From assembly GCA_028687715.1 (NCBI GenBank), contig JAQTZP010000004.1:25751-89750 (forward strand): a DNA stretch of 64,000 nucleotides, given 5' to 3'. Position 1 is the stretch's first letter; every line of letters starts with the position of its first letter. This DNA is from Minisyncoccota bacterium (GTDB lineage Bacteria; Patescibacteriota; Minisyncoccia; Minisyncoccales; GWA2-38-27). This document shows positions 13,043-40,622 of this stretch, piece by piece. The notes under the pieces are model-generated. The model was not told the origin of the DNA. It saw nothing but the letters and a program-made list of their open reading frames with translations, and did no database searches. A program made the position numbers and the translations under genes.

Positions 13043-13053
13043 AATAAAAACAA

Positions 13054-13177: not shown

Positions 13178-13206
13178 CTGTTCAATAACTCTAATTCTAA
13201 TACTAT

Positions 13207-15428: not shown

Positions 15429-15442
15429 AATCAGTTAAAAAA

Positions 15443-15473
15443 AGACCCGGGCACTTCAACTCGGGTCTTTTAT
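15443..15473. terminator. Bidirectional intrinsic terminator between convergent genes
   Basis: Stem AGACCCG (15443-15449) / CGGGTCT (15462-15468), flanked by an A-run upstream and a T-run downstream. Confidence 0.6.
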
Positions 15474-15492
15474 TTTAAACCTTTGATTAATC

Positions 15493-18400
15493 TTAAAAAG
15501 GAGGTATTTCAATCCATTCTGGAGGAAGAAGAGTCATTCCTATAGGTACATCAATAGCCAGAGAGCAATCCCTGGACAAAGAATCGGTAACCATTAGAAC
15601 AACCTCTTTGGAACCTTCGGAATTAAACTTAATATTTGCGGGATTAGGACTAGTAGAACTCGCAGGAGTTCCGCTTTCAAAAGTCCATAAATAATTACAA
15701 GGACCTGAAGGACAAGTAGTTCCTGCGCTGAAAAAATCAGTATTTTCACCAACATTAGGATTTGAAGGATCCCAGGTAAATGAGGGACAGGGATATTCAG
15801 CTATCGAAGGAATGGTTGAGCTTGCCCAAGGAGAGTCTATAGGTCCGTTAGTATCCCAAACCATTACTCTCCAGTAATAATTAGTGCTGAAATTAATAGA
15901 TTGAGTAGCATAAGAATTTGAACTGCTTTGTACTTTATTGGTGTCAATTATTAGGTTGTTAAAACCCTCGTCAGTTGCAACCTGAACCTGATAGGCTGAT
16001 TGAAGATCGCCTTCGTCAGGATCAGAATATGTCCAAGAAAAAGCTACTGAAGGAACAGCATCGCAACAATCGGTAGCGCTGGGATTAAAGCTGATATTAG
16101 AAGGAGCATTAGGAGGATTATTAGACGGCTCTCCTTCACATCTACAATTTATACATTGCTGATATGGAAAACATAGATTTAAGCCCGGCTCTCCGCACTC
16201 CTCACCTGCATCTCTTATTCCGTCTCCGCAGCAGCAGTCTTCATCGCTAGAACACTCATCAGGAAGCTGTGATTTTGCTGATAATAAACATGCTATCATT
16301 CCGTTTGAAAAAGTACAAATTTTGCTTTTGCCTTCGCAATCTTCATAAGAGAAACATTGATTGCTTCCTTCTCCTGATACAGAAACGCAAGAATTACTGC
16401 TGTCGCATTCTAAGTGCTGTTTATCGCAGTCATTATTTGATAAACATTCATTTTTTCCCTCTCCGGGTTGAGGAACGCAAGTCGTGCCTACGCATTCATA
16501 ATGAGAGCCATCGCACCCTGAATCATCTAAGCACTTGTCTTCTCCTCCGCCTGACACAGAAACGCACCTATTGGCACTGCAGTCTAAATGTGTCTCGCCG
16601 CAATCGCTGTTTGAAAAACATTCATCAGAGCCTTCTCCTGAAACTAAATTACAGATGTTTACTCCACAAGCCCTGTGTTTATCATCTGTTCTGCAAATAG
16701 TAGAATCAGAACATTCATCTGGCCCTTGATCCATTACTGCAATGCAGTATTCAGCATAACAGATGTTATGGCTTCCCCAATCCTGGAAGCTTACTATCCC
16801 TCCCCCTTCACCAGCACAGGATTCAGGACCCTTAGAAGCAGAAGGGATTGATGAGATTTGAACGCTTGAGCCGATTTCTCCGGCTGAACCATTATTTGAA
16901 GGCGGAATGAACTTAATTGAAAAGTTTTCAGCAGAATAATTTGAACCTCCAAGCAAAGGATCTTTTGTCCTGCAGGAATTGAGTCCTGAATAAGAACAGC
17001 AATAAGGAGAATCAACAGGGCACTCAACTCCGTAATCCCAATAAGGATAAGTACCTGAATAAGCGCAGAAAGAATCAGCGCGAGGAAGATCTAGGACGGA
17101 AGCGCCCTGCAACCCACCTGCTCCCCCTGCTCCTGGGTTAAGCTGACCTTGAATAATATTTATATTAGTTAGTTGTATCGTACCGGCATTTCCTCCTTTG
17201 CCTCCAATTCCTCCGTTCCCAGGCTGATTTATGGAACTTGATTGTCCTGTTCCTCCTCTTCTGCCTATGCCGCCGCTAGCATAAAAGTTTTTTAAAATAG
17301 AGATATCAAGCGGGCTGTCTATTAAAATACTTCCTCCATCTCCGCCGCTTGCTCCTGACTGACCGCCATAGGAAGAAAAACCTGTTTGAGCAATTTCAAC
17401 TACTCCGCTTGTTCGAGATATTCCTGAGGCAACCTCTTCCGGGCTTAATACTCTTGTCTGGCAAGGAGTCTGAAGATTAGGCCCTCCTGATTTTGCTATA
17501 TTAATAAGTTCGGCTCCGCTTTTTGGATTAGTGCAGTACCAAGGATAAGAGCTGTAATCTCCGTCTCCTGTATCTCCGCCGTCTCCTCCTTTAATTTCTG
17601 CTGTAATGTTTTCAATAGGGTCATCAGTAGGCATCGGCTTTAAAGTTATATTTCCTCCAGCTCCTCCAGCGCCTGATACTTCAGCTACTTTTATCTCTTT
17701 TACTGCTTTATCTCTCCAGCCGGTTAAATCGCAGTTTCCAGTATGGTTATTGTAAATATCAAAAGGCGTTGCCATAACATTATAATCACCACTTTCTCCT
17801 CCTTTGCCCCCATTGCTTTTAAGAACTAAACTTTTAAAACAATGTATCCTGCTTGCACTTACTGTGATACTTCCTCCAATTCCTCCTGTTCCTCCTTGAC
17901 CCCCTGAACCTCTTTCATACATTGTATGAGTTACTGGTCCTTGATAGTAAATTCCGCCAACAGAGCAGTAATTACCTCCTGCGCCTATTCCTCCTCGAGA
18001 ACCATTCCCGCCGTTAGACTTCAAATCAAGAATATTAGTTCCTGACGCCCACTGGATCCTTGGACTTGTAACTGATATGTTTCCTCCATTTCCTCCAGAA
18101 ACTCCGTCTTGACCATCTGTTCCGTTGTAATATTCATGGGTTTGTTCTCTACAAAACGCATCTGTATCAGAAATAAAACTTCCAGTTGCAGGATCTAGAC
18201 TCACCCCTTCTTTTAAATACCATAAAGAGCCGTAGGGGCTTGGGTCTGAAGGAGTAAAACCAGAAGTATCTGCTATAAGGGAACGGCCCCAACCATTTGG
18301 CGCTGTTCCTTCTATCCTATAATTTGAAACTAAATTAACATCCCCCCCGTTGGGAGCAAAAGCATATCTGGCCCTGGCATAAATAGGGTTTTCTATTAAA

Positions 18401-19758
18401 AGAGTAGGTTCTAAGGAAAGATTAGTGTTTGAAGCTTCAATCCAGATATTTCCAGCAGACTGACCCGGAGGGTTTATAAGTTCGCCCGTAAATGCTGTTA
18501 CATCAAAATTATCGCTTGTTATGCTTCCTTTAACTTGAACCCAGGTTCCTTTTATATTAACATTATTAGGATCGGCTGCAGTATGAAATCCTGTAGAATT
18601 AATTCCAGAAGAACCTATAAAAACTATTCCATTGGGAGCATACAAAGAAATCTTTCCAACTATCCCAGCGCCGCTGTATCCTGTAGCATAAAGATTGCTA
18701 TTCTGATAGCCGCTGTAAGCACTGTTATTAATCCCTGAACCTACTCTTACTCCTCTCTGCTGACCAGTTCCGTTTGCTTGCAGTATAATTTTTCCACTAC
18801 TTTTATAATCCTTGCAGAATCTTCTGAATTTATAAGTGACAGGATTTAATTGGCAAAGATTTCCGTAATCGCATTTCTCTTCCTTAGTACTTTCTTCACA
18901 GGCGCTGTAGGTATAGATATTGTCAGTTATCCAGATTCTCTCATTAGCCTTAATTACAATATTACTAGGCTCAAGCCCCTGGGCAAATAAATTATTGGCA
19001 TATAAAGAGTTAATAAACATATCAAAAGGGGCAGGCAGAATTGTTATCTGACCCGCCCTGCCAAAGCCAGCAGTAGAAAAACCAAATACCGGCGCAAAAA
19101 CCCAGCCATATATTGATTGAGAAGATAAGGACCCTGCTTTAATATCTTTTCCATAAATAGAGATATTTCCTCCGTCTCCGCTAATACCGGCACAACTTAT
19201 ATTCCCTACAGAAACTATCTTCCCTTTTAAAATCACATTACCTCCATTGCCTTGATAAACTACGGCGCTTAACTCTTGGCTAGGCTGATTAAAGATATCC
19301 CCTCCGATTACCAGTCCCTCATTGGTTCTAAAAGTAATATTTGACGGAATAAATGAAACTCCTGAATACTTATAAATAGTAACGCTTTTATACTCTATCA
19401 AATCATAGGCAAATAAGTTTATGTCCGTTAAACTAGGCCTAGTTATCCGTAAACCTTCATCCGGGGAGAAATAAATCTTTTTTGTCCCCTTGATCGCAAA
19501 AGAACTAGCGGTTAATTTTACCTTATCCAAATCATTGCCGCTCCCATCTCTTAAATCAAAAGTTAAACCTGCATTAATCACATTATCAACAAAACTCTTA
19601 TTAACGCAGATAGAATCATCAGCGTCTATTTCCGAACAGGTTGAACTTTGATTAACTAAAGTGCAATTGCAAGATGCGGCAGAAACTGAACCTCCTTTTA
19701 TGGTTATTATAAAAAAGAAAAGAGCAAAGATTATTATTTTTAGCTTTTTATTTTTCAT
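15493..19758 (-). CDS. Giant secreted/surface protein: signal peptide, Gly-rich beta-helix-like repeats, Cys-rich tandem modules, FN3-like and PKD-like C-terminal domains
   Basis: 1421 aa. N-terminal signal peptide (KLKIIIFALFFFIITIKGGSVSAAS). Recurrent GGxGGxI(S/T)(L/V/I) motifs. Five or more ~31-aa Cys-rich modules. A CCCGDGIRDAGEECGEPG motif. An AYQVQV...YYWRVMVWD FN3-like segment, and a PKD-like end. Confidence 0.85.
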   Translation of the reverse strand: MKNKKLKIIIFALFFFIITIKGGSVSAASCNCTLVNQSSTCSEIDADDSICVNKSFVDNVINAGLTFDLRDGSGNDLDKVKLTASSFAIKGTKKIYFSPDEGLRITRPSLTDINLFAYDLIEYKSVTIYKYSGVSFIPSNITFRTNEGLVIGGDIFNQPSQELSAVVYQGNGGNVILKGKIVSVGNISCAGISGDGGNISIYGKDIKAGSLSSQSIYGWVFAPVFGFSTAGFGRAGQITILPAPFDMFINSLYANNLFAQGLEPSNIVIKANERIWITDNIYTYSACEESTKEEKCDYGNLCQLNPVTYKFRRFCKDYKSSGKIILQANGTGQQRGVRVGSGINNSAYSGYQNSNLYATGYSGAGIVGKISLYAPNGIVFIGSSGINSTGFHTAADPNNVNIKGTWVQVKGSITSDNFDVTAFTGELINPPGQSAGNIWIEASNTNLSLEPTLLIENPIYARARYAFAPNGGDVNLVSNYRIEGTAPNGWGRSLIADTSGFTPSDPSPYGSLWYLKEGVSLDPATGSFISDTDAFCREQTHEYYNGTDGQDGVSGGNGGNISVTSPRIQWASGTNILDLKSNGGNGSRGGIGAGGNYCSVGGIYYQGPVTHTMYERGSGGQGGTGGIGGSITVSASRIHCFKSLVLKSNGGKGGESGDYNVMATPFDIYNNHTGNCDLTGWRDKAVKEIKVAEVSGAGGAGGNITLKPMPTDDPIENITAEIKGGDGGDTGDGDYSSYPWYCTNPKSGAELINIAKSGGPNLQTPCQTRVLSPEEVASGISRTSGVVEIAQTGFSSYGGQSGASGGDGGSILIDSPLDISILKNFYASGGIGRRGGTGQSSSINQPGNGGIGGKGGNAGTIQLTNINIIQGQLNPGAGGAGGLQGASVLDLPRADSFCAYSGTYPYWDYGVECPVDSPYCCSYSGLNSCRTKDPLLGGSNYSAENFSIKFIPPSNNGSAGEIGSSVQISSIPSASKGPESCAGEGGGIVSFQDWGSHNICYAEYCIAVMDQGPDECSDSTICRTDDKHRACGVNICNLVSGEGSDECFSNSDCGETHLDCSANRCVSVSGGGEDKCLDDSGCDGSHYECVGTTCVPQPGEGKNECLSNNDCDKQHLECDSSNSCVSVSGEGSNQCFSYEDCEGKSKICTFSNGMIACLLSAKSQLPDECSSDEDCCCGDGIRDAGEECGEPGLNLCFPYQQCINCRCEGEPSNNPPNAPSNISFNPSATDCCDAVPSVAFSWTYSDPDEGDLQSAYQVQVATDEGFNNLIIDTNKVQSSSNSYATQSINFSTNYYWRVMVWDTNGPIDSPWASSTIPSIAEYPCPSFTWDPSNPNVGENTDFFSAGTTCPSGPCNYLWTFESGTPASSTSPNPANIKFNSEGSKEVVLMVTDSLSRDCSLAIDVPIGMTLLPPEWIEIPPF
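16270..16760 (-). repeat. In-frame divergent tandem repeat (~93 nt / ~31 aa Cys-rich module) inside the giant gene
   Basis: The protein shows repeated H-x-(D/E)-C-x3-5-C-V-x-V-S-G-x-G-x-(D/N)-x-C-x3-(N/S/E)-D-C units, for example HLDCSANRCVSVSGGGEDKCLDDSGC and HLECDSSNSCVSVSGEGSNQCFSYEDC. Confidence 0.6.
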
Positions 19759-20711: not shown

Positions 20712-21209
20712 TTGATAATATTAGGAATTGATCCGGGACTGGCAACCATAGGCTATGGGGTCTTAAAAAAGCCTAAAGATAAAAAAGATAAAATTAAAGT
20801 AATCGCCTACGACTGCATTACTACAAGCCCAAAGTTCAATCCCGGCCAGCGCCTTTATAAAATAAATAGAGAGCTTAATAAAATAATCAAGAAATACAAC
20901 CCTAAAGTTTTAGCCGTAGAAAACATTTATTTCTTTAAAAACTTAAAGACTGCAATGCCGGTAAGCCAAGCGAAAGGAGTAATTTTAATGACTGCGGCAA
21001 AGAAGAAAATTCCTGTTTTTGAAGTAACACCTCTGCAAGTCAAAATGACCGTGGCAGGCTACGGCAAAGCAGAAAAAAAGCAGGTTCAGAAAATGATCCA
21101 AATCCTGCTTGATTTAAAAGAATTCCCTAAAAAAGACGATGCCGCTGATGCTTTAGGGGTCGCCCTCTGCTGCGCCATAGAGAGTGAGAGAATAATTAAA
21201 CAATCTTAG
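20712..21209 (+). CDS. ruvC: Crossover junction endodeoxyribonuclease RuvC (TTG start)
   Basis: 165 aa. ILGIDPGLATIGYGV start and C-terminal DAADALGVALC. Confidence 0.88.
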   Translation: MIILGIDPGLATIGYGVLKKPKDKKDKIKVIAYDCITTSPKFNPGQRLYKINRELNKIIKKYNPKVLAVENIYFFKNLKTAMPVSQAKGVILMTAAKKKIPVFEVTPLQVKMTVAGYGKAEKKQVQKMIQILLDLKEFPKKDDAADALGVALCCAIESERIIKQS

Positions 21210-22389
21210 CAAACCTTCTTTTTCCTGCTTTAATTATCATTCCTTTTTTTATTTCAATAATCTTTTCTAAATCAGCTTGAACTTCATTATCAATTCTTAC
21301 TGCTCTTTGGACAATCAGCCTTTTTGCTTCAGATTTTGAAGAAACCAGCCTTAATTTAACCAGCAAATCAATAATAGGAATTCTTTCCCCTTCTATTTTA
21401 ACCTCGTCAATATCTGTCGGAGCCTTTTTATTCTTAAAAACTCTCTCAAACTCTTTTTCCGATTCAGATGCCAGCTTCTCTCCGTGATAAATTCTTACAA
21501 TTTCTTTGGCAAGCCATAATTTAAGGTCTTTAGGATTTGCCTTGCCTTTCAATTCTTTTTTAATCTGCTGAATTTCTTTTAAAGAGGCATCGGTAGCTAG
21601 TTCAAAATAATCTGGTATAAGGTTATCGGTCATTGACATTATCCTGCCGAACATCTCTTGAGGTTTATCCATTATTGTTATAATATTGCCCCAGCTGGTA
21701 GACATCTTTCTTGAATCAAGGCCCGGAAGCATCTTTAAGGTCATGATATCCTGAACAGGCATATTAGAGGTTTCTTGGAGCTGGCGTCCTACTTTTAAAT
21801 TAAACAATTGATCAGTGCCTCCAATCTCAACATCGGCAGAAACAGCAACTGAGTCGTATCCCTGAAACAAAGGGTACAAAAGCTCGTGAAGGCCTATAGG
21901 CTTACTGCTGGCCCATCTCTCCTTGAAGTTTCTTCTTGTAATCATCTGCTGGGCAGTAAAGTTCATTGAAAGAGAAATAAGGTCTTTGGAGTTAAGTTTT
22001 TTAAGCCATTTGCTATTGTAGCAAAATTCTGTTTTCTTTATATCCAATATCTTTCCTATCTGCCTCTTATAATCCTTCATATTCTCTTTTATCTCATTTT
22101 CTGACAAAGACCTTCTCATTGAAGTTTTATCAGAAGCATCGCCTATCAAAGCAGTAAAATCGCCGATAATTAAAACAATCTGATGCCCCAAATCCTGAAA
22201 CGCCTTAAGTTTTCTAAACTGAAGAGCCCTGCCCAAGTGAATCCTTGGACCGGTTGGGTCAATTCCGTGTTTTATTCTAAGCTTTTTCCCAGATTTCAGT
22301 TTCTTTATCAAGCTGTCTTTTTCAATAACTTCTTCAACCCCTTTTGTCAGAATTTCTTCAATTTTTTTCTCATCGCTATTTATTTTCAT
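21196..22389 (-). CDS. tyrS: Tyrosine--tRNA ligase
   Basis: 397 aa. HIGH-region variant GIDPTGPRIHLGRA, LLYPLFQGYDSVA, GGTDQLFN, KMSKS variant KMSTS, and a C-terminal S4-like domain (SKSEAKRLI). Confidence 0.85.
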   Translation of the reverse strand: MKINSDEKKIEEILTKGVEEVIEKDSLIKKLKSGKKLRIKHGIDPTGPRIHLGRALQFRKLKAFQDLGHQIVLIIGDFTALIGDASDKTSMRRSLSENEIKENMKDYKRQIGKILDIKKTEFCYNSKWLKKLNSKDLISLSMNFTAQQMITRRNFKERWASSKPIGLHELLYPLFQGYDSVAVSADVEIGGTDQLFNLKVGRQLQETSNMPVQDIMTLKMLPGLDSRKMSTSWGNIITIMDKPQEMFGRIMSMTDNLIPDYFELATDASLKEIQQIKKELKGKANPKDLKLWLAKEIVRIYHGEKLASESEKEFERVFKNKKAPTDIDEVKIEGERIPIIDLLVKLRLVSSKSEAKRLIVQRAVRIDNEVQADLEKIIEIKKGMIIKAGKRRFAKIV

Positions 22390-22433
22390 ACAATTTTATT
22401 TTATGATAAAAATACAAGATTGTAAATCCATTT

Positions 22434-24434
22434 ATGCCTAAAAGAGTTTTCAGCAGAAAAGTGTACAAAAAAGATAAAAGAAAAGAGATAATCTCTTTAG
22501 TTCTGAAATTATCAGTTTTAGCTTTAATAGCAGCTCCGGTTGTTATGGTTTTTTTATTTCTTTACTATTCAAAGGACCTGCCCCGACCGGAAAAGTTTAC
22601 TGAAAAAACCTTTGTTGAATCCACTAAGATTTACGACAGAACCGGAAAGGTATTGCTGTTTGAGATGTACGGAGAGGAAAAAAGAGAAACAGTTCCCCTT
22701 GATTCAGTCTCCGACTATTTAAAAAAAGCAGTCATCTCGGTAGAGGATGCCAATTTCTACTCCCATTATGGAATTGATATTACAGGTATCTTCAGAGCGA
22801 TTAAAACAGATATAATAATTGGGAAGCCGGCTTTCGGCGGTTCAACAATCTCCCAGCAGCTTATCCGTTCAACCTTTCTAACCCCTGAAAAGACAATAAA
22901 AAGGAAAATAAGGGAGATAATCCTAACTTTAGAGCTTGAAAGAAAGTATTCAAAAGACCAAATCTTAGAATGGTATCTTAACCAAATTCCCTTTGGTCCC
23001 AACCTTTACGGAGTAGAAACCGCTTCAAAAGCATACTTTGAAAAATCTGCCAAAGACCTTTCTTTAAACGAAGCCGCAGCCTTAGCTGCTGTGATTCAGG
23101 CGCCGAGCTATTTTTCTCCTTACGGTCCGAATAAAGAAGAACTAGTCAACAGGAAGAATTATGTTTTAGAAAGAATGAACCAGGAAGGATATATCACAAA
23201 AGAAGAGCTTGAAAGCGCTAAAGCCCAGGAGCTGGCTTTTTCAGAATCTGTTGGTTCAATAAAAGCTCCTCATTTTGTTTTTTACATCCAGAACTATCTT
23301 TTAGAAAACTACGGTAAAGATATGCTTGAGAAAGGAGGTCTCAATATTTATACTTCTTTGGACTGGGAGCTTCAAGAAACTGCTGAAAAAGCAGTTTTAG
23401 AAGGAGTTGAAAAGAATAAAAATTACAAGGTAAATAATGCGGCCCTGGTTGCAATAGACCCGAAAACAGGAGAAGTACTGGCAATGGTTGGCTCAAAAAA
23501 CTGGTTTGGAGACCCTTATCCTGAAGGATGCACTTCTGGAAAAGACTGCCTCTTTGACCCTAAGGTTAATGTAGCAACGTATAATATAGGAAGACAGCCC
23601 GGCTCTTCCTTTAAGCCCTTTGTTTACGCCACTGCTTTTTCAAAAGGTTATGACGATAAATATGTTGTAGTAGATGAAGAAACTAATTTTGGAATCTTTG
23701 GAGGAAAACCCTATATCCCCAGAAATTATGACGGGAAATTCAGGGGTCCGGTTACTTTGCGCCAGGCCTTGGCCCAGTCGCTCAACATTCCCGCTGTGAA
23801 AACTTTAGCCTATCTGGCCGGACAAAAAGACAGCATTGAAACAGCGAAAAAGCTGGGAATTACAACTCTAAACAAACCTTATTCATATTACGGACTTTCA
23901 ATTGTCTTGGGAGGAGGAGAAGTCAAGCTCTTGGATATGGTTTCTGCTTACGGTGTTTTTGCAACCGAAGGATACAGAATCCCCCCTGTTTCTGTTTTAA
24001 GAATAGAAGATTCAAAGGGAAATATTTTAGAGCAGAACAACAAGATTTCTAAAATGGTCTTGGAAAAAAGGTCAGCGGTGATATTAAACAGCATTCTTTC
24101 AGACAATGACGCCAGAGCTCCTATGTTCGGCTATAATTCTTTATTGTATTTTAAAGACTATCAGGTGGCAGTAAAAACAGGAACAACTGATGACTTTAAA
24201 GACGGATGGATTATAGGGTATACGCCTTCTGTCGTCCTTGGGGTCTGGGTAGGCAATAATAATAATGTTTCAATGAGCAAAGAACCAGGGGTGGTTTTAG
24301 CCGGACCCATCTGGAGAAGCGTAATGAGCTATATTCTTCCCAAGCTCCCTAGGGAAAACTTCACTCCTATTGAAACTATTGAGCCTCAAAAAACTGACTC
24401 TGAAATAATAGAAGAAATTGAGACAAATCCCTAG
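22434..24434 (+). CDS. Bifunctional class A penicillin-binding protein (glycosyltransferase + transpeptidase)
   Basis: 666 aa. N-terminal TM helix. GT51 motifs EDANFYSHYGID and GGSTISQQL. Transpeptidase motifs SSFKP and KTGTT. Confidence 0.9.
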   Translation: MPKRVFSRKVYKKDKRKEIISLVLKLSVLALIAAPVVMVFLFLYYSKDLPRPEKFTEKTFVESTKIYDRTGKVLLFEMYGEEKRETVPLDSVSDYLKKAVISVEDANFYSHYGIDITGIFRAIKTDIIIGKPAFGGSTISQQLIRSTFLTPEKTIKRKIREIILTLELERKYSKDQILEWYLNQIPFGPNLYGVETASKAYFEKSAKDLSLNEAAALAAVIQAPSYFSPYGPNKEELVNRKNYVLERMNQEGYITKEELESAKAQELAFSESVGSIKAPHFVFYIQNYLLENYGKDMLEKGGLNIYTSLDWELQETAEKAVLEGVEKNKNYKVNNAALVAIDPKTGEVLAMVGSKNWFGDPYPEGCTSGKDCLFDPKVNVATYNIGRQPGSSFKPFVYATAFSKGYDDKYVVVDEETNFGIFGGKPYIPRNYDGKFRGPVTLRQALAQSLNIPAVKTLAYLAGQKDSIETAKKLGITTLNKPYSYYGLSIVLGGGEVKLLDMVSAYGVFATEGYRIPPVSVLRIEDSKGNILEQNNKISKMVLEKRSAVILNSILSDNDARAPMFGYNSLLYFKDYQVAVKTGTTDDFKDGWIIGYTPSVVLGVWVGNNNNVSMSKEPGVVLAGPIWRSVMSYILPKLPRENFTPIETIEPQKTDSEIIEEIETNP

Positions 24435-24536
24435 CGCTGCAATAAAAAAGTCCTTGTTTTCCCCTTGTTGTTTGTTTTTTATCTGTGGTAGAATAAATCA
24501 AAAGTCGATAAGGAAATAATATTTTCTGAATTTAAC

Positions 24537-24950
24537 ATGGCTGATTACTCAAAAGACCAGCTTTGGGATCTTTACGAAAGCCTGCCCAAAGAGCTTCAAA
24601 AAGCTATTTTTTCCTCTGAAAATGCTGACAAGATATACAATATAGCCGTAAAGAACGGATTAGAGGAAGAAAACATTCCAATTGTTTCTAAATATACAGG
24701 CTATGTTCTTTTAGGAATTATGCCGCCTGACGAGTTCCAGAAAACAATCAAGAAAGATTTAAAACTCTCAGAGCAGACTGCCAAAAAGATTGCCCTAGAA
24801 ATAAACAGGTTTATCTTTTATCCAGTAAAAAACAGCTTGGAGGCATTATACAGGATTGAAATTGAATCAAGTCCAAAGACCTTAAAAGAAAAAGCCTCTG
24901 AACCTGTTAAAAAAACATTAAAAGATAAATACAGAGAAGAAGTAGGATAA
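24537..24950 (+). CDS. Hypothetical protein, first gene of the T4SS-like operon
   Basis: 137-aa ORF immediately upstream of the PrgI-like gene. No recognisable motif. Confidence 0.5.
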   Translation: MADYSKDQLWDLYESLPKELQKAIFSSENADKIYNIAVKNGLEEENIPIVSKYTGYVLLGIMPPDEFQKTIKKDLKLSEQTAKKIALEINRFIFYPVKNSLEALYRIEIESSPKTLKEKASEPVKKTLKDKYREEVG

Positions 24951-24958
24951 AAGATCTT

Positions 24959-25360
24959 ATGCAGTTTATTGTCCCTAAAATAGAAAGGAAATTAAGAATA
25001 GGGCCTCTCACCTTAGAACAGCTTGTTTATCTTGTTGTCGGCGGAGCAATCTCTTTTTTACTCTATCATTCAATCCCGCTTACCTCTTTTATTATTGCTT
25101 CAAGCCTGGTGATAACCCTAACTCTGCTTATGGCTTTTGGAAAAATAGGTAGAGATTCTTTTCCCGTGTTTATAAAAAAGGCGTTTTTATTCGCACTAAG
25201 CTCAAAGATTTATCTTTGGAAAAGAAAAGAAATATCTGTTAGTTTTGCTCCTGAGAAAAAAAGTAAATTAAAAGAAGAAAAGGAGGAGGAAGGCTTAAAA
25301 ATAGCCCAGTACAGCAGGCTTAAAGACTTATCAACAAAATTAGAAACCAAATCAAAATAA
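24959..25360 (+). CDS. PrgI-family-like small membrane protein (T4SS-associated)
   Basis: 133 aa. The N-terminus MQFIVPKIERKLRIGPLTLEQL, followed by two TM helices, resembles PrgI-family proteins of Gram-positive-type T4SS. Confidence 0.55.
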   Translation: MQFIVPKIERKLRIGPLTLEQLVYLVVGGAISFLLYHSIPLTSFIIASSLVITLTLLMAFGKIGRDSFPVFIKKAFLFALSSKIYLWKRKEISVSFAPEKKSKLKEEKEEEGLKIAQYSRLKDLSTKLETKSK

Positions 25361-26011
25361 TTGTTTATGGCGAAATCAATAACTCAGGATTTCTTGCAGT
25401 TCAGCCAAATCAAAGACGGAATTCTTGTTCTAAAAAACAAGGGATTAAGAGCTGTTTTAATGGTCTCTTCTTTGAATTTTGAACTTAAATCAGAAGACGA
25501 GCAAAATGCAATTCTTTATCAGTTCCAGAACTTTTTAAACTCTCTGGATTTTTCTTGTCAGATTATAATCCATTCAAGGAGATTGAATATGGCAGGATAT
25601 TTAGACAGGCTTAAAGAGATAGAAAAGAACGAAAGAAACGAACTGTTAAAAATCCAAATAAATGAATATCAAAAATTTATTGAGAGCATTGTAGGAGAAG
25701 GAACGATTATGCAGAAGAACTTCTATGTAGTAGTTCCTTTTTCTTTAATGGAAATACCTGCTAAATCATTGTCTGAAACAGGAAAAAAAATCACTAAAAT
25801 AATCAATGAATTAACCGAGGAAGAGTTTAAAAGAGCCAGAACCCAGCTGCTTCAAAGAGCGGAATTTGTGGCTTTGGGATTAAGGAGTTCAGGACTCCAA
25901 AGCGTTCTTTTAAACACCATGGAAGTTTCCGAGCTTTTCTGGAGCCTCCATCATCCAACAGAATCAGAACAAGGGTATTATCCTGAAATCCCTCCGGAAC
26001 TTACTTCTTAA
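25361..26011 (+). CDS. T4SS-associated protein resembling a VirB4/TraC N-terminal region
   Basis: 216 aa (track TTG start; alternative ATG at 25367). The pattern FSQIKDGILVLKNKGLRAVLMVSSLNFELKSEDEQ resembles VirB4-type N-termini. It sits directly upstream of the ATPase gene. Confidence 0.45.
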   Translation: MFMAKSITQDFLQFSQIKDGILVLKNKGLRAVLMVSSLNFELKSEDEQNAILYQFQNFLNSLDFSCQIIIHSRRLNMAGYLDRLKEIEKNERNELLKIQINEYQKFIESIVGEGTIMQKNFYVVVPFSLMEIPAKSLSETGKKITKIINELTEEEFKRARTQLLQRAEFVALGLRSSGLQSVLLNTMEVSELFWSLHHPTESEQGYYPEIPPELTS

Positions 26012-26016
26012 TTTTT

Positions 26017-27816
26017 ATGTTGTTTCCTTTTTTTAAAAAAAGAGATAGAAAAACACCAGAAATTCCCTCGTCTGACCCTTTTAATATCGCTGATATAATA
26101 GCCCCGTCTTTTATTGAGATAAAGCATAGTTACCTGAAAATGGGAGAACGACTGGCTAAAACCTATTTTATCTTTTCATATCCAAGATATCTAAACACCG
26201 GATGGTTTTCTCCGGTGATAAATCTCAGCTTCCCGATAGACGTCTCCATCTATATTCATCCCATTGACAGCGCAGAAGCTTTAAAGCAGTTAAGGAGAAA
26301 AGTAACAGAGGTTCAGGCGGAAATATCAGAACGAGAGGAAAAAGGATTAATCCGCGACCCGGCGCTTGAAACTGCTTATACAGACTTAGAAGACTTAAGA
26401 GACAGGCTTCAAACGGCCCAGGAAAAGATGTTTAATTTTTCTGTTTATGTAACTTCTTATGCTGACAATGAAAAAGAGTTAAGAGATATAGAGATTGAAC
26501 TGCGCTCTATTTTGGAATCACGACTGATATATATAAAGCCGGCCCTATACCAGCAGAAAGAAGGGTTTTTATCAACCTCTCCCTACAACTTGGACCTTTT
26601 AATGGTGTCTAACAAATTAAACACAAGCCCGCTTTCAACATCGTTCCCTTTTGTCTCATTTGACTTAAGCTCAAACGAAGGGATTCTTTACGGCCTAAAC
26701 AAGCATAATGCCTCTCTTGTCTTGTTTGACCGATTTTCATTAGCCAATGCCAATTCAGTTATCTTTGGGGTAAGCGGCAGCGGAAAAAGCTATGCCATTA
26801 AGCTTGAGATTTTAAGATACCTGATGCTTAATGTTGATGTTATTGTAATCGACCCTGAAAATGAATACAGATTCCTTTCTGATGCCGTAGGCGGCTCTTT
26901 TTTCGAAATATCTCTTTCATCTGACAATCACATTAATCCCTTTGACCTTCCTCAGCCTAAAGAAGATGAAAAGCCTTCTGATGTTTTAAGGTCAAACATA
27001 ATAAACATGGTTGGTCTGATAAGAATAATGCTTGGCGGATTAACGCCTGAAGAAGACGCTATTATAGACCAGGCAATAACCGAAACATACGCTGCCAAAG
27101 ATATTACTCCTGAAAGCGACCCAAAGCTCTGGGGTAAAAAAGAAGGACTGGAATTTCCTATTATGAGCGATTTAGAGGAGGTTCTTTCTACTATGGAAGG
27201 AGCTGAATCGCTTGTTAGAAGAATCCAAAGGTTTACAAAAGGGGTTTACTCCAATTTCTTTAATCAGCCTTCAAACGTTGATACGACAAATAGAATGGTT
27301 GTTTTCGGCATCAGAGACATGGAAGACGAACTAAGACCCATGGCTTTATTTATAATCCTAAGATATGTCTGGAAAACAATTACCTCCAAGATGAAAAAAC
27401 GCCTCCTTATAATAGACGAAGCCTGGTGGCTGATGAAAAATGAAGATGGAGCTTCATTTCTATTCGGCACTGTCAAAAGAGCCAGGAAATACTGGCTGGG
27501 AGTAACCACTATCACCCAGGACGTAAACGATTTTATGAAGTCTGATTACGGAAAACCGATTATCACCAATTCAGAGCTCCTTGTTTTAATGAAGCAGAGC
27601 CCGGCTACTATTGAAACGGTCAAAAATACCTTTAATCTAACAGAAGAAGAAAAGCTTTTACTGCTTGAATCTCCGACTGGCGAAGGGATATTTTTTGCCG
27701 GAACCAAGCATGTTTTAATAAGGGTGCTTGCTTCATACACCGAAGACCAGATAATCACCACAGCGCCTGAAGAGATTATAAAAATAAAGGAGGCTAAAAA
27801 AGAATTAGAAAGCTAA
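26017..27816 (+). CDS. VirB4/TrsE/PrgJ-like type IV secretion ATPase
   Basis: 599 aa. Walker A GVSGSGKSY, Walker B LLIIDEAW, and a TQD motif (TTITQDVNDF). Confidence 0.8.
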   Translation: MLFPFFKKRDRKTPEIPSSDPFNIADIIAPSFIEIKHSYLKMGERLAKTYFIFSYPRYLNTGWFSPVINLSFPIDVSIYIHPIDSAEALKQLRRKVTEVQAEISEREEKGLIRDPALETAYTDLEDLRDRLQTAQEKMFNFSVYVTSYADNEKELRDIEIELRSILESRLIYIKPALYQQKEGFLSTSPYNLDLLMVSNKLNTSPLSTSFPFVSFDLSSNEGILYGLNKHNASLVLFDRFSLANANSVIFGVSGSGKSYAIKLEILRYLMLNVDVIVIDPENEYRFLSDAVGGSFFEISLSSDNHINPFDLPQPKEDEKPSDVLRSNIINMVGLIRIMLGGLTPEEDAIIDQAITETYAAKDITPESDPKLWGKKEGLEFPIMSDLEEVLSTMEGAESLVRRIQRFTKGVYSNFFNQPSNVDTTNRMVVFGIRDMEDELRPMALFIILRYVWKTITSKMKKRLLIIDEAWWLMKNEDGASFLFGTVKRARKYWLGVTTITQDVNDFMKSDYGKPIITNSELLVLMKQSPATIETVKNTFNLTEEEKLLLLESPTGEGIFFAGTKHVLIRVLASYTEDQIITTAPEEIIKIKEAKKELES

Positions 27817-28122
27817 TTGCTTATGAGCAACTTTATATCCCCAGAAGCCGTAGTAATGCTTCTTGCCGCCGTTCTTCTTGATACAATAGGCTTTTTATTC
27901 TTGTTTCTCAGTTTTTTAGGCGTAGGTATTCCTCTTTCTTTTATCCCTGATTTAATTGGATTAATTTTTATCGGAGGCTGGATGTTTCTACGCTCTGGAG
28001 CAAGGCAAAAAAGAATAGGCAAGAGACTGGGTCTGGCTTTTTTAGGGGAAATAATCCCTTTTTTCGGAGATATTGCTCCCTGCTGGACCTTAGCTGTATT
28101 TTTTGAATTAAAAAATAATTAA
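27817..28122 (+). CDS. Small polytopic membrane protein (T4SS operon)
   Basis: 101 aa with about three hydrophobic helices. Track start is TTG; alternative ATG at 27823. Confidence 0.5.
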   Translation: MLMSNFISPEAVVMLLAAVLLDTIGFLFLFLSFLGVGIPLSFIPDLIGLIFIGGWMFLRSGARQKRIGKRLGLAFLGEIIPFFGDIAPCWTLAVFFELKNN

Positions 28123-28132
28123 TCTATATATT

Positions 28133-28480
28133 ATGAAAATTGCAATAACTATATTTTCATTACTTATTTTTCTTTTCCCGTCTATTATATATTCTTTTTC
28201 TAGACCCCCAGAGCTTGATTATCCTTTTACAGACCTTACTAATCTGCCCGGCTATATCATTTATCTTTATAATTTTGCAGTTGTGATAAGTGCATTTATT
28301 GCTCTTGGAGCTTTAGTTTACGGAGGCTTTAAATATCTTACATCAGCAGGAAATCCAAGCAAAGTTCAGGACGGGTTAGACCAAATTAAAGCAGCGATAT
28401 TCGGTATTTTGATTGTCTTGTGTTCTTATTTAATTCTTAAAACTATAAATCCTAATTTAGTAGTCTGGCCTTTCTTTTAA
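28133..28480 (+). CDS. T4SS pilin-like protein (TrbC/VirB2-type, CPR T4SS_pilin family)
   Basis: 115 aa. Signal/TM segment, then two helices around YGGFKYLTSAGNPSKVQDGLDQIKAAIFGILIV. The protein at 39210 has the same architecture. Confidence 0.6.
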   Translation: MKIAITIFSLLIFLFPSIIYSFSRPPELDYPFTDLTNLPGYIIYLYNFAVVISAFIALGALVYGGFKYLTSAGNPSKVQDGLDQIKAAIFGILIVLCSYLILKTINPNLVVWPFF

Positions 28481-28487
28481 AAATAAA

Positions 28488-28519
28488 ACACCGAGACTAT
28501 ATAACCTTGGTGTTTTTAT
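28488..28519. terminator. Intrinsic terminator between convergent operons
   Basis: Stem ACACCGAG (28488-28495) / CTTGGTGT (28506-28513), followed by a T-run. Confidence 0.6.
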
Positions 28520-28529
28520 TTTATCGAAA

Positions 28530-30430: not shown

Positions 30431-31780
30431 ATGACAAACGAAGAGCTTTGGCAAGGCGTTCTTGCCCAAATTCAATTGAATATCTCCCAGGCAAACTTTG
30501 CTACTTGGTTTAAAAATACTTCTATTGTTTCTCAAAAAGAAGGCAGGTTGTTAATCTCTGTGCCTAATTCATTTGTCAGAGAATGGCTTGAAAATAAATA
30601 CAATAAGCAGATATTTAAAATAATCCATAATTTAAACGAAGAGATTAAGGAAATCAAATACAGCGTTGGGAAGGCCTCGGAAAAAGCTGTTAAAAAGGCT
30701 TCTATAGACCTGCTTGAAAGCGACCAGCTTGAGTTCCAAGAACTTAAAATAGACAAAGAAACAAACCTTAATCCCAAATACATCTTTGATTCTTTTATAG
30801 TCGGCCCCTTCAATGAACTGCCCCACGCAGCCGCCTCAGCAGTAGCTGAAAATCCAGGATACATCTATAACCCTTTATTCATTTACGGAGGAGTGGGTCT
30901 TGGAAAAACTCATTTGCTTCAGGCAATAGGCAATGAAGTTGCAAAGAACTTTAAAACAAAAAAAGTAAGATATATTTCTTCTGAAAAATTCACTTCAGAA
31001 GTTGTATTGTCTATTAAAAACCATCAAATTGACTCTTTTAAATCAAAATACAGAGCCATTGACGTCTTAATAATAGATGATATTCAGTTTTTAGCAGGAA
31101 AAGAAAAGACTCAAGAAGAATTCTTCCATATTTTCAACGTCTTATACGAGAATAATAAGCAGATTATCCTTTCATCTGATTGTCCACCCAAAGCAATCCA
31201 CTCGTTAGCCGAAAGATTAAGATCCAGATTTGAAGGAGGAATGACAGCGGATATAAGCAATCCTGATTTTGAAACCAGAGTTGCTATTTTAAAAACAAAA
31301 GCTCAGGAAAAAAAGGTTGATTTTCCAATTGAAGTATATAATTATCTTGCTTCTTCTATTCAAAAGAACATCAGGGAATTAGAAGGAGCCTTAAACAGGC
31401 TTATTGCTTATCAAAAAATAAACAACAAGCAGCTGGATTTGGAAACCATAAAGATTATTCTTAAAAACGTTCTAATGAGTCCGGCTAAGGTTATCACCCC
31501 AAAGAAAATCATCCAAACCGTGGCTGAATTCTATGATTTAAAAGAAAAAGACATTTTAGACTGCTCCAGAAAAAAAGAGATTGTAAGACCGAGACAAATA
31601 GCAATGTATTTATTAAGAGAAGAATTAAAAAGCTCTTTCCCTTTTATCGGAAGAAAATTCCAGGGCAAAGACCATACTACTGCCATTCATTCGTATAAAA
31701 AAATAGCTAAAGAAATTGAAAAAGATAAAAAACTGGAAGAAGAAATAAGTTTAATTAAAGAAAGGGTTTTAAGCTCTTAG
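30431..31780 (+). CDS. dnaA: Chromosomal replication initiator protein DnaA
   Basis: 449 aa. Walker A GGVGLGKTHLL, a sensor/box VII region, and a C-terminal DNA-binding helix (DHTTAIHSYKKI). Confidence 0.95.
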   Translation: MTNEELWQGVLAQIQLNISQANFATWFKNTSIVSQKEGRLLISVPNSFVREWLENKYNKQIFKIIHNLNEEIKEIKYSVGKASEKAVKKASIDLLESDQLEFQELKIDKETNLNPKYIFDSFIVGPFNELPHAAASAVAENPGYIYNPLFIYGGVGLGKTHLLQAIGNEVAKNFKTKKVRYISSEKFTSEVVLSIKNHQIDSFKSKYRAIDVLIIDDIQFLAGKEKTQEEFFHIFNVLYENNKQIILSSDCPPKAIHSLAERLRSRFEGGMTADISNPDFETRVAILKTKAQEKKVDFPIEVYNYLASSIQKNIRELEGALNRLIAYQKINNKQLDLETIKIILKNVLMSPAKVITPKKIIQTVAEFYDLKEKDILDCSRKKEIVRPRQIAMYLLREELKSSFPFIGRKFQGKDHTTAIHSYKKIAKEIEKDKKLEEEISLIKERVLSS

Positions 31781-33645: not shown

Positions 33646-33675
33646 TTGACAAAAATTAAAAGATGTGATTATAAT
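33646..33675 (+). promoter_or_regulatory. Near-consensus sigma70-type promoter for the SPFH gene
   Basis: TTGACA (33646-33651), an 18-nt spacer, then TATAAT (33670-33675). Confidence 0.5.
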
Positions 33676-33724
33676 TTATACATCAAGAAATAGGTTCTTG
33701 ATAGCGGAACCTTCACAATTTAAT

Positions 33725-34915
33725 ATGGAGGAAAATACAATGAAGATGTGGTATAGTTTTTGTCAGATAATATTTATCATCATTGCCCTGGTTATCGTCG
33801 GGGTAATAGCATTCTTTTTGGCAAAATTAATTTTTTGGCTCAGTATAATTAGTATCCCTATTCTAATTCTTATTTTCATCTATAATGCTATTACTATTAT
33901 TTCAGCAGATCCTCCCAATAAAGGAATTTGGGTTTTTTTTGGAAAAAGACAGAAAGTGTTATTAAAAGAAGGATGGCATTTCCTTCCTTTTTATCCTATT
34001 GTTTTTGATGCAATTTCAATTAGAGTGACTAAAATAAATCAAGATCTGCCCAATCAGGTAGTACGAACCCCCGATTTAGCAGAGGTTAGTGTAAGCATAA
34101 GCGTTACTTGGATTCCGGGTGGTCCGGACAATATAGATGAAAAAGATCAGGCAAGTGCCTTTATCCAATTTCTGAACAGCGGAGAGGAGGAAGGAGTTAA
34201 AAATATTCTCCAGGATATTATCAACGACAGGCTTAGAGGATGGGCGATCTCCGAAGAAGAGGGTCCGTCTGATTGGCAAGAATTATTGGGCGCCAGGGAT
34301 GATGCTATAACTGTTTTATTAAAAGCCATCCTAGGAGAAGATCTATCTTCTATTCCTTCTTCTGTCCCTACACCTGTGTTACTTAAATATTGGGATGTTC
34401 CCCCGAAGAGACCTTTAAAAAAAGAGATGAGTAAATGGGGAAAGAGAACTAGAAAAGGTAGTGAGTGGCAAAGATTAGAAGAAGAATTAGCCAAATTATC
34501 AGATCAAGAAAGAGAAAATTTAAAAATGAAAATAGAAGAAAGACGAAATCTTATTAAGATGGCTAGGCAAGGTAATGGGTTTTTTTATAAAAAACCTCTT
34601 GGTATTACAATTAATCGTTTTACTATCGATAACGCAGCCCCTCTAGGAAAAACTGCAGAAGCGGCTGAACTCAAAGCTAAAGAGCAACACGAAAGAGCTG
34701 CTGAAAAAACAGAAATAGAGGGAATTATGGATAGAATAAGAGATTTAAAAGATTTAGGCTTTTCTTTAGAGCAAGCCTTAGAAATAGTTCAATCTGAAAG
34801 AGGAAAGATTACTAAATCAGTTTCTGAGAGTAAGCTTAACATTTCTTCTGAGACGAGAGCAATGATTGAAAAAGTGTTTCCTGATTTAGCTAAATTATTA
34901 AAGAAAACAACGTAA
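33725..34915 (+). CDS. SPFH/Band-7 domain membrane protein with C-terminal coiled coil
   Basis: About 396 aa from the ATG at 33725. The track's GTG start at 33665 overlaps the predicted promoter. Two N-terminal TM helices. SPFH-like core (GIWVFFGKRQKVLLKEGWHFLPFYPIVFDAISIRV). Charged helical C-terminus. Confidence 0.65.
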   Translation: MEENTMKMWYSFCQIIFIIIALVIVGVIAFFLAKLIFWLSIISIPILILIFIYNAITIISADPPNKGIWVFFGKRQKVLLKEGWHFLPFYPIVFDAISIRVTKINQDLPNQVVRTPDLAEVSVSISVTWIPGGPDNIDEKDQASAFIQFLNSGEEEGVKNILQDIINDRLRGWAISEEEGPSDWQELLGARDDAITVLLKAILGEDLSSIPSSVPTPVLLKYWDVPPKRPLKKEMSKWGKRTRKGSEWQRLEEELAKLSDQERENLKMKIEERRNLIKMARQGNGFFYKKPLGITINRFTIDNAAPLGKTAEAAELKAKEQHERAAEKTEIEGIMDRIRDLKDLGFSLEQALEIVQSERGKITKSVSESKLNISSETRAMIEKVFPDLAKLLKKTT

Positions 34916-34921
34916 AAAAAG

Positions 34922-34945
34922 AACCCCATAAAGGGGTTTTATTTT
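34922..34945. terminator. Bidirectional hairpin between convergent genes
   Basis: Stem AACCCC (34922-34927) / GGGGTT (34933-34938), with A-runs and T-runs on either side. It abuts the stop codon of the minus-strand gene. Confidence 0.55.
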
Positions 34946-37014: not shown

Positions 37015-37045
37015 TAAAATATTATAACAGATATATCAAGTTAAG

Positions 37046-37879: not shown

Positions 37880-37987
37880 TGTGTTAATCTTACCCTTTTT
37901 ATAAATCCAAACAATATCTATAGGCTAATTGTGGAAAAACCCCTTGACCTCAGTTCTAAAAAAGGATAGGATTAAAATAACATAAAG

Positions 37988-39109: not shown

Positions 39110-39209
39110 GCTTAATCAATATCAATTTATAAAAGAGCAGATTAAGCTTTTTTATTTTGGAAAAGACAGTTCTTTTCTTTCATTTTAAAATATGTTAGAA
39201 TTTTAAAAG

Positions 39210-39647: not shown

Positions 39648-39720
39648 GCCCTCATAGCTCAATTGGCAGAGCAGATCCCTCTTAAGGATAAGGTTCCAGG
39701 TTCGACTCCTGGTGGGGGCA
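39648..39720 (+). tRNA. tRNA-Lys (anticodon CTT)
   Basis: Manual cloverleaf: acceptor GCCCTCA/TGGGGGC, D arm GCTC/GAGC, anticodon loop CTCTTAA, T arm CCAGG-TTCGACT-CCTGG. 73 nt, no encoded CCA. Confidence 0.85.
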
Positions 39721-39847
39721 TATGTTTGTTAAGAACTTAGGGCTTTACAAATTATTCATTTGTTATAATATCAATAATTAATATCAAAAAAGGTATTTTG
39801 CCTTTTTTATTTTTTAATTGTAAAATTAAGTTAAGAAAATAAAAATT

Positions 39848-40111: not shown

Positions 40112-40115
40112 ATTT

Positions 40116-40619: not shown

Positions 40620-40622
40620 AAT

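Follow-up and report, generated by a model that had tools for sequence, protein, structure and literature searches.

Which kind of machine is encoded by an operon that resembles a type IV secretion system (T4SS), lies beside a chromosomal replication origin and has neither a relaxase nor a coupling protein in view? Such an operon, consisting of six genes at 24537-28480, is located on a 64-kb stretch of the genome of a Minisyncoccota bacterium of the Patescibacteria (contig JAQTZP010000004.1 of assembly GCA_028687715.1, positions 25,751 to 89,750), hereafter the window; all coordinates below are positions in the window. A preliminary description of this DNA had argued against a conjugative element and for a chromosomal apparatus with another role, such as host interaction. 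We assign a probability of roughly 80% to the reading that the operon is the core of the Patescibacteria-type chromosomal T4SS, an MPF_FATA-derived monoderm machine that has no link to conjugation. The locus is a rediscovery and not a new system: the earlier observation and its interpretation are both correct and both already published (PMC10633639, PMC12102498, PMC12857230).

The six genes of the operon and their products

All six co-directional, tightly spaced genes that had been described are present on the plus strand. These open reading frames (ORFs) encode, in this order, a cytoplasmic protein from a family without annotation (ORF1, 24537-24950, 137 amino acids (aa), PHI53_02485), a PrgI/VirB3-like membrane protein (ORF2, 24959-25360, 133 aa), a TrsD-like protein that corresponds to the N-terminal domain of VirB4 (ORF3, 25361-26011, 216 aa), a VirB4-type ATPase of the CD1110 (MPF_FATA) type (ORF4, 26017-27816, 599 aa), a small membrane protein (ORF5, 27817-28122, 101 aa, PHI53_02505), and a pilin of the VirB2-like family PF18895 (ORF6, 28133-28480, 115 aa). 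Because the intergenic gaps are only 0-10 nt (8, 0, 5, 0 and 10 nt from ORF1 to ORF6), this arrangement fits a single transcription unit.

ORF4 scores 382.7 bits against NF045971, the CD1110-family VirB4-like conjugal transfer ATPase (cutoff 325; model positions 187-732 of 752), matches PF19044 (E 2.4e-25), and retains intact Walker A (GVSGSGKS) and Walker B (LLIIDEAW) motifs. It corresponds to a full-length VirB4 without its N-terminal quarter and aligns with residues 228-772 of the 796-aa PrgJ of pCF10 (26% identity, E 1e-46). ORF3, for which a start at the ATG of position 25367 is a likely alternative, matches the TrsD model NF041427 (E 4.3e-6), positions 102-264 of NF045975 (E 1.6e-10) and positions 7-147 of NF045971 (E 9.7e-7), and aligns weakly with residues 33-175 of PrgJ. 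The calls of ORF4 as a VirB4/TrsE-like ATPase and of ORF3 as a VirB4-N-terminal-like protein, both made in the preliminary description, are thus borne out by the family models. To collect relatives, one genome per GTDB species was scanned for VirB4, which yielded at least 573 loci; the comparisons of loci use the best 80. By the alignments with PrgJ, VirB4 is encoded in two pieces, ORF3 and ORF4; a separate TrsD-like ORF is kept in 78 of these 80 relatives, and the split is no frameshift artefact.

ORF2 is located directly upstream of the TrsD and VirB4 genes, as prgI is upstream of prgJ in pCF10, and contains two predicted transmembrane segments (approximately residues 17-64). The earlier PrgI-like call is not secured by the window protein itself, which falls below the gathering score of PF12666 (20.6 versus 27 bits, E 6.4e-4), but it is upheld by the orthologs, given that 41 of the 41 that were extracted match this family (best E 2.6e-11). 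An alignment profile of the PrgI-like proteins had no match among PDB sequences, and hmmsearch with four profiles detected nothing among the ORFs of pCF10; hhalign comparison of the profiles of the PrgI-like protein and of a VirB6-like protein encoded elsewhere in the window with the single PrgI and PrgH sequences of pCF10 gave marginal values (E about 0.025).

The VirB2-type pilin that had been recognized in ORF6 exceeds the gathering score of PF18895 (T4SS_pilin; 35.3 versus 26.6 bits) and also matches NF045849 (Mbov_0395 pilin-like; E 1.6e-6). A signal peptide and two hydrophobic helices are predicted for this protein, with hydrophobic segments at residues 1-23, 38-69 and 82-111. A second VirB2-like pilin, of 145 aa and with a Cys-rich N-terminal segment, is encoded on the plus strand at 39210-39647; it is 25% identical to ORF6 and reaches 27.9 bits against PF18895 (gathering score 26.6). 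Apart from these two, a search with a local hidden Markov model of the pilin found no pilin domain in the window.

Minimal pilins like those of the window account for only 7 of the 102 pilin-domain proteins of the relatives, and in 90 of the 102 the domain is followed by more than 100 residues (median 283, maximum 1,110, 3.9% Cys). In the relatives, the stretch from VirB4 or ORF5 to jag is hypervariable and holds between zero and four genes for pilin-domain proteins with Cys-rich extensions; pilin-domain loci include L001:4695-8906 and L015:12099-15807 (L numbers designate the loci of relatives) and 61 other related loci. The pilin domain in these genomes is, for the most part, the N-terminal module of long Cys-rich proteins. 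This arrangement is possibly new, was not found in a recent survey of Patescibacteria T4SS (PMC12102498), and provides a possible lead, namely, pilin domains as anchors for large Cys-rich proteins.

The two remaining proteins, ORF1 and ORF5, are both annotated as hypothetical and match nothing in Pfam or NCBIfam. ORF1 has no predicted transmembrane segment. Its architecture comprises a six-helix domain, a variable disordered linker and a C-terminal tail (AlphaFold2 model, predicted local distance difference test (pLDDT) 78), and a Foldseek comparison of the model with the PDB gave no informative fold match (best E 0.9). The tail has the form D-x-Y-R-E-(P)-x-E, in which D130, Y132 and E134 are invariant in the alignment and R133 is nearly so. 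Although unique within the window, this motif, when used as a regular expression, retrieves 52 ORFs in 51 of the 80 related loci, all on the strand of the T4SS genes and between the VirB6-like and PrgI genes, including divergent proteins that tblastn missed (for example, L015:8183-8719 and L025:8390-8893). With an E limit of 1e-3, a profile of ORF1 detects 7,175 cluster representatives, and no Pfam domain is present on any ORF1 homolog found. ORF1 is a conserved component of the locus and belongs to a large family without annotation, a finding that is possibly new.

ORF5, which NCBI calls as 99 aa from the ATG at 27823, has two or three predicted transmembrane segments and directly follows VirB4 in at least 20 relatives. 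All 42 of its homologs are hypothetical proteins, none with a Pfam domain, and hhalign found no similarity to PrgF or PrgG of pCF10 or to the pilin ORF6 (E 0.28-0.67). It is a second lineage-specific protein, a small membrane protein confined to Patescibacteria and, again, possibly new. Neither ORF1 nor ORF5 is named as a T4SS component in the available portions of PMC12102498 or PMC10633639. Together with the pilin fusions, these leads could guide complex structure prediction and genetics in tractable relatives.

The signals proposed for the two ends of the operon fared differently. Upstream of ORF1, both hexamers of the putative sigma-70-type promoter are present on the plus strand at 24465-24494 (TTGTTG at 24465-24470, an 18-nt spacer, and TAGAAT at 24489-24494), and direct reading gives 3 of 6 consensus positions for the -35 element and 5 of 6 for the -10 element, with a TGn extended -10. 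The consensus match is weak, however, and a consensus scan of the region neither called this site nor supported it otherwise, promoter-like sites being rarer in the operon region than in shuffled sequence. Given the 3-of-6 match of the -35 element and the failure of the scan to call the site, we consider a promoter at this position plausible and no more. The terminator that had been placed at 28488 was confirmed as an intrinsic hairpin with a T-run (28480-28522, to which we assign no strand) between the convergent pilin and jag genes. Its 8-bp stem is formed by ACACCGAG (28488-28495) pairing with CTTGGTGT (28506-28513) and is followed by the T-run; the hairpin folds at -14.1 kcal/mol (z = -5.4), a stability that was reached in 0 of 200 shuffled sequences. 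The scan missed this hairpin because its loop is 10 nt long. The A-run upstream and the T-run downstream of the stem suggest that the terminator could work bidirectionally.

Conservation beside the replication origin and the genes across it

The best 80 VirB4 relatives all come from metagenome-assembled genomes of Patescibacteria, with identities of 57-78%; the lineages named among them are Nealsonbacteria, Staskawiczbacteria, Paceibacterota and other Parcubacteria. Searching these loci by tblastn with 21 window proteins reveals a conserved order of ORF1, PrgI, TrsD, VirB4, (ORF5) and pilin(s), followed by the convergent jag-yidC-rnpA-rpmH genes and then by dnaA-dnaN. Matches were obtained for TrsD in 78 loci, PrgI in 65, the pilin in 57, YidC in 56, DnaA in 53, DnaN in 47 and the VirB6-like protein in 43. 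Conservation of the operon near yidC-rnpA-rpmH-dnaA, a point raised in the preliminary description, was found in more than 50 species-level genomes of Paceibacteria, where the operon is beside jag-yidC-rnpA-rpmH and dnaA-dnaN. The origin-proximal placement holds as well. Because the minimum of the cumulative GC skew is at about 30-32 kb and the 64 kb contain just two perfect DnaA boxes, one at 30331, in the rpmH-dnaA spacer, and one at 31853, in the dnaA-dnaN spacer, we place the predicted replication origin (oriC) between rpmH, dnaA and dnaN, with the end of the operon about 2 kb away.

Across the relatives, the identity of VirB4 (26017-27816) to the window protein tracks that of DnaA (30431-31780), with a Pearson r of 0.905 (n = 52 loci). 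In these 52 loci, the mean identity is 64.8% for VirB4, 58.1% for DnaA, 46.3% for DnaN and 45.8% for YidC. Because VirB4 is correlated with DnaA and is even better conserved, the data fit vertical inheritance of VirB4 under strong selection, and the purifying selection appears to be unusually strong for a secretion ATPase. The base composition of the operon is native, with a GC content of 0.366 compared to 0.351 for the whole window and a GC content at third codon positions like that of the neighboring housekeeping genes. The best VirB4 matches from plasmids, those of Firmicutes and Actinobacteria, are only 29-34% identical to ORF4, and from this gap in identity we infer that ORF4 would group within the VirB4 clade of Patescibacteria.

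The six-gene operon is real, but it is not the complete machine: a VirB6-like protein, a peptidoglycan hydrolase and the second pilin, all at 34.9-39.6 kb, were missed in the preliminary description. The first of these (34939-37014, minus strand, 691 aa, PHI53_02550, annotated as hypothetical) is predicted to be a polytopic membrane protein of the extended VirB6-like kind, whose C-terminal domain, about 300 aa long, is hydrophilic and helical. Its predicted structure (pLDDT 78) matches TrwI with a Foldseek probability of 0.97-1.0. In sequence, the match to the TrbL family PF04610 is weak (E 0.012), a homolog, P0014, passes the gathering score of that family, and 3 of 30 orthologs match TrbL; an alignment profile compared with PDB sequences returned only coiled-coil noise. 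Most of the VirB6-like homologs also carry a precomputed PF19590 tag, which we take to denote a TrbL-like family and have not used as evidence. In most relatives, the VirB6-like gene is directly upstream of the operon.

The hydrolase, encoded at 37988-39109 on the plus strand, combines LysM (PF01476, E 5.3e-23) and M23 (PF01551, E 2.5e-24) domains. In 21 of the 80 relatives, its gene occurs in synteny with those for KsgA and the VirB6-like protein, on the upstream side of the operon. It is a candidate functional analogue of VirB1; both domains occur in VirB1-like proteins of Patescibacteria (PMC12102498).

Why these genes are 7-11 kb from the operon in the window becomes apparent from the gene order of the relatives. 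In most of these, including distant ones, M23 (minus strand), KsgA (plus strand) and the VirB6-like gene (plus strand) are directly upstream of ORF1 and PrgI, and the genes for penicillin-binding protein 1A (PBP1A) and tyrosyl-tRNA synthetase (TyrRS) come after dnaN; the resulting ancestral order of VirB6, VirB3 and VirB4 equals prgH-prgI-prgJ of pCF10. In the window, as in L002, L004, L006, L009 and L013, which are its closest relatives, the two flanking blocks, TyrRS-PBP1A and M23-KsgA-VirB6-like(-SPFH), are swapped (21196-24434 and 33665-39647 in the window) compared to the unswapped arrangement exemplified by L014, L015, L025 and L036. The swap is explained by one inversion, across oriC, of the stretch that runs from ORF1 to dnaN. 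By this inversion, the T4SS locus was split in the window lineage while remaining contiguous in most Paceibacteria relatives, which ties the VirB6-like protein, the M23 hydrolase and the second pilin to the same system as the operon; it is also because they had been moved across oriC that they escaped notice earlier.

Other genes adjoin this displaced block. An SPFH/Band-7 membrane protein is encoded next to the VirB6-like protein (33665-34915), and in six relatives an SPFH gene is located between the VirB6-like gene and the operon, on the opposite strand. The second pilin gene is followed, at 39648-42728, by a gene for tRNA-Lys, a small ORF, an NYN-domain protein (40116-40619) and polynucleotide phosphorylase (PNPase; 40623-42728). 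In our reading the small ORF resembles ribosomal protein S15, and an RNase fold is predicted for the NYN-domain protein. PNPase is also near the M23-KsgA-VirB6-like block in four relatives (L025, L036, L038 and L045), a link that is positional only.

Known counterparts, possible role and rival explanations

The T4SS of Patescibacteria has been characterized in two studies. In Southlakia epibionticum, Wang et al. (2023) showed by transposon sequencing that the T4SS cluster SEML1_0006-0019 is essential for epibiotic growth; this system resembles Gram-positive conjugative systems, includes essential pilin genes and has no recognizable coupling protein or relaxase (PMC10633639). In a survey of 3,035 Patescibacteria genomes, Quinonero-Coronel et al. 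(2025) found that one monophyletic clade within MPF_FATA comprises 2,425 VirB4 proteins, that TrsD, PrgI/VirB3, VirB6 and VirB2-like pilins are widespread, and that in Paceibacteria and Microgenomatia the locus is near dnaA, dnaN, rnpA, rpmH and ksgA; the function they suggest is import of DNA or other host macromolecules (PMC12102498). T4SS-pilin proteins rank with the unknown extracellular genes of highest expression in methanogen-parasitizing Paceibacteria (PMC10936435), a 2025 FEMS review calls the Patescibacteria T4SS "the most exciting newcomers" (PMC12857230), and, according to a 2026 preprint, a cultivated member of the phylum takes up host RNA and shows tubular interface structures that "may be T4SS pili" (bioRxiv 10.64898/2026.06.21.733656). 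The Patescibacteria T4SS, the only one known to be essential for the growth of its owner, pairs a Gram-positive-type machine with VirB2-like pilins and ranks among the problems of greatest interest that ultra-small bacteria pose.

The window locus shares with this system VirB4, a separate TrsD, PrgI/VirB3, VirB6, PF18895 pilins and a nearby M23/LysM protein, as well as the lack of a relaxase or coupling protein beside virB4 and the neighborhood of dnaA, dnaN, rnpA, rpmH and ksgA; its lineage belongs to Paceibacteria, the class best represented in the survey (PMC12102498). It differs from the surveyed loci in being split by the inversion across oriC, and has two minimal pilins compared to the six-gene pilin array of Southlakia. 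It is a compact Paceibacteria example, with six genes on one side of the origin and three on the other; apart from the leads given by ORF1, ORF5 and the pilin fusions, it brings the question of substrate and direction no closer to a test than earlier publications.

Among conjugative systems, the closest are the MPF_FATA T4SS of Gram-positive plasmids and integrative elements (prgF-prgL/pcfC of pCF10, trs of pGO1 and CD1110 of CTn2), with which the window shares a VirB4 of the CD1110 family and a monoderm organization without an outer-membrane core; in its TrsD/TrsE-like split, the window agrees with the pGO1 subclass (PMC12102498). In contrast to the MPF_FATA systems, no relaxase, coupling protein, accessory relaxosome protein or integrase is seen at the window locus, and the operon includes neither a PrgL/VirB8-like protein nor a PrgK-like hydrolase. 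Conversely, the VirB2-like pilins of the window are absent from Gram-positive MPF_FATA systems. Unlike the plasmid and integrative representatives, the locus is chromosomal and apparently vertically inherited, and its VirB4 is only 26-34% identical to theirs. The Ced/Ted systems and Helicobacter ComB resemble the window in combining a VirB4-family ATPase and a VirB2-like pilin without a relaxase or coupling protein, and set a precedent for a T4SS that acts as an importer; the outer-membrane core of ComB (VirB7, VirB9 and VirB10) is irrelevant for a monoderm. Membership in Ced itself is rejected, considering that ORF4 scores 44.3 bits against the CedB model NF041017 (cutoff 700), and none of the small window proteins matches the NCBIfam CedB and CedD models. 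With the VirB systems of R388 and Agrobacterium (MPF_T), the window has in common the VirB2-type pilin architecture and the VirB3-VirB4 partnership, and it is to TrwI/VirB6 of R388 that the 691-aa protein is closest in predicted fold. The differences are that the window has no VirB5, VirB7-VirB11 or VirD4, that the envelope is monoderm, and that its VirB6 is extended by a large C-terminal domain.

By homology with characterized T4SS, the PrgI/VirB3-like protein would tether the two-piece VirB4, that is, the TrsD-like protein and the 599-aa ATPase, at the membrane, the extended VirB6-like protein would form a membrane platform or channel, and an opening in the cell wall may be made by the LysM-M23 hydrolase. 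The VirB2-like pilins would be exported by Sec, pulled from the membrane by VirB4 and polymerized into a tube or pilus, with ORF1 and ORF5 as putative lineage-specific accessory parts. The most likely role of such a machine is that of a contact-dependent conduit between epibiont and host, and the role in host interaction or macromolecule exchange suggested in the preliminary description agrees with the evidence from the locus and with the published work (PMC10633639, PMC12102498, PMC12857230). With respect to the direction of transport, we lean slightly to import of host macromolecules, such as nucleic acids, because of the Ced and ComB precedents, the lack of nucleotide synthesis in the phylum, and the preprinted uptake of host RNA. 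A more specific scheme, which we put forward tentatively and regard as rather unlikely in its entirety, is that a VirB2-like tube, served by the split VirB4 and the VirB6 platform, imports host RNA or DNA, that the NYN-domain protein and PNPase turn these into nucleotides, and that ORF1 docks to the ATPase as a substitute for a coupling protein. Import has already been proposed by others; the adaptor role of ORF1 and the link to the RNA-degrading neighbors would be new. In the 2026 preprint, feeding on host RNA is linked with both PNPase and VirB4.

The locus could, alternatively, be a conjugative or integrative element or its remnant, with the relaxase, coupling protein and integrase outside the region seen. 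The closest homologs outside Patescibacteria are indeed conjugation ATPases of Firmicutes and Actinobacteria plasmids, the NCBIfam name of the ORF4 family is "conjugal transfer ATPase", and there are Patescibacteria genomes, few in number, that carry relaxases (PMC12102498). However, we recognized nothing like a relaxase, an integrase or VirD4 among the listed ORFs of the 64 kb, in agreement with the earlier account, although no relaxase-specific profile search was made. The only proteins of at least 150 aa with a Walker A motif in the window are RuvB, VirB4, a PilB-like T2SSE ATPase, DnaA, TsaE and the product of an ORF at 61697-62710. The possibility that a relaxase and a coupling protein lie just outside was addressed with overlapping contigs that add about 6 kb at one end of the window and about 8 kb at the other: no conjugation gene is annotated in these roughly 14 kb of flanks (about 78 kb in total), one of which encodes RtcB, NIF3 and DUF763 proteins and the other a radical-SAM/SPASM enzyme, a methyltransferase, histidine kinases and an aminotransferase. 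The operon is not bordered by a tRNA or repeat junction, as even the closest tRNA gene, at 39648, is not adjacent to it, and an Rfam scan of the window found four tRNAs and nothing else. In the survey, relaxases are rare, with only 15 of 2,474 virB4 genes having one nearby (PMC12102498). Conjugative export of DNA is unlikely given that no relaxase or coupling protein is nearby, and with the chromosomal position fixed across more than 50 species, the co-divergence of VirB4 with DnaA and the native composition on the same side, we reject the mobile-element explanation, which is hardly credible; the non-conjugative chromosomal apparatus proposed at the outset agrees with all these observations.

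Among the explanations that keep a non-conjugative machine and differ in what it does, export of toxins or effectors into the host by the same apparatus, as in Bordetella Ptl and Brucella VirB, which operate without a coupling protein, is possible though unlikely. It is compatible with the lack of a relaxase and coupling protein in view, and the conserved tail of ORF1, which follows a disordered linker, might be seen to resemble C-terminal T4SS secretion signals. The D-x-Y-R-E tail is, however, acidic and aromatic, whereas substrate signals of VirB/D4 systems are typically positively charged. Moreover, no effector candidates were identified in the window, and the Sec-dependent periplasmic loading of exporters that have no coupling protein is a diderm mechanism with no clear monoderm equivalent. 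Protein export is one of the options considered by Wang et al. (PMC10633639), and speculation on effector delivery has been noted (PMC11665869). That VirB4, VirB6 and the pilins build only an adhesive filament or an anchor for large pilin-domain surface proteins, with no translocation, appears very unlikely: the Cys-rich extensions of 90 of the 102 pilin-domain proteins in the relatives are presumably extracellular and adhesin-like, and T4SS-pilin proteins have been listed among domains related to host adhesion (PMC10936435), but the pilins of the window are minimal and devoid of adhesin domains, type IV pili are already encoded (the PilB-like ATPase at 11726-13042; compare PMC12857230), and attachment alone does not obviously explain the conservation of VirB4 and the essentiality of the system in Southlakia. 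A competence machine that takes up free or donor DNA for transformation or as a source of nucleotides, like Helicobacter ComB and archaeal Ced, has in its favor the precedents for T4SS-based import (PMC11665869, PMC12102498), the absence of nucleotide biosynthesis from Patescibacteria according to the papers cited, and a weak match of ORF4 to CedB (NF041017, E 9.3e-12). We nonetheless view it as distinctly improbable because that score, 44 bits against a cutoff of 700, does not indicate a Ced ortholog, the operon has no DNA-processing genes, and competence in Southlakia depends on ComEC and type IV pili, with comEC dispensable and the T4SS essential (PMC10633639, PMC12857230).

Several points weigh against our preferred reading of the locus as a non-conjugative Patescibacteria-type T4SS that serves as a conduit to the host. 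The coupling protein is absent only from the DNA seen, and a VirD4-like gene may be present elsewhere in the genome, as in most Patescibacteria genomes such genes are far from virB4 (PMC12102498). Among the parts across oriC, the VirB6 call derives from a predicted structure and weak sequence matches, and the hydrolase is placed in the system solely by its synteny; furthermore, the analysis detected no component resembling VirB8. Nor is a pilus necessarily universal, considering that two close relatives, L002 and L005, have no detectable pilin gene beside VirB4, and the window itself holds just two pilins, both minimal. Finally, assembly and pilus would follow from homology, and a requirement for epibiotic growth is known from Southlakia alone; sequences of the window and its relatives, on which this reading is built, settle neither the substrate nor the direction of transport.

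Other features of the window

Away from the T4SS genes, a lone PilB/GspE-type ATPase (T2SSE, E 4.5e-112; 11726-13042) is encoded between tsaE and ruvB. After it come the genes for a protein that has two lamin-tail domains (14241-15428) and for a Cys-rich surface protein of 1,421 aa (15493-19758). The genes at 11726-19758 are likely parts of a type IV pilus and host-adhesion repertoire. A 921-aa protein (42760-45525) consists of an extremely Lys/Glu-rich coiled-coil N-terminal half, one transmembrane segment and a C-terminal peptidoglycan-binding domain; its gene accounts for a sharp local spike of GC and AT skew (0.37-0.40) and for long spurious antisense ORFs at 42732-43667 and 43677-44156.

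The window also encodes three B12-binding radical-SAM proteins (341-1837, 4463-6001 and 57665-59245), a homolog of the CofE-like F420 ligase (56839-57615) and an archaeal-type S-adenosylmethionine synthetase (PF01941; 60372-61685), a set that looks unexpected for so reduced a metabolism. At the window end, a nucleotidyltransferase (MNT-like) and a HepT-like protein form a toxin-antitoxin pair (63146-63978).

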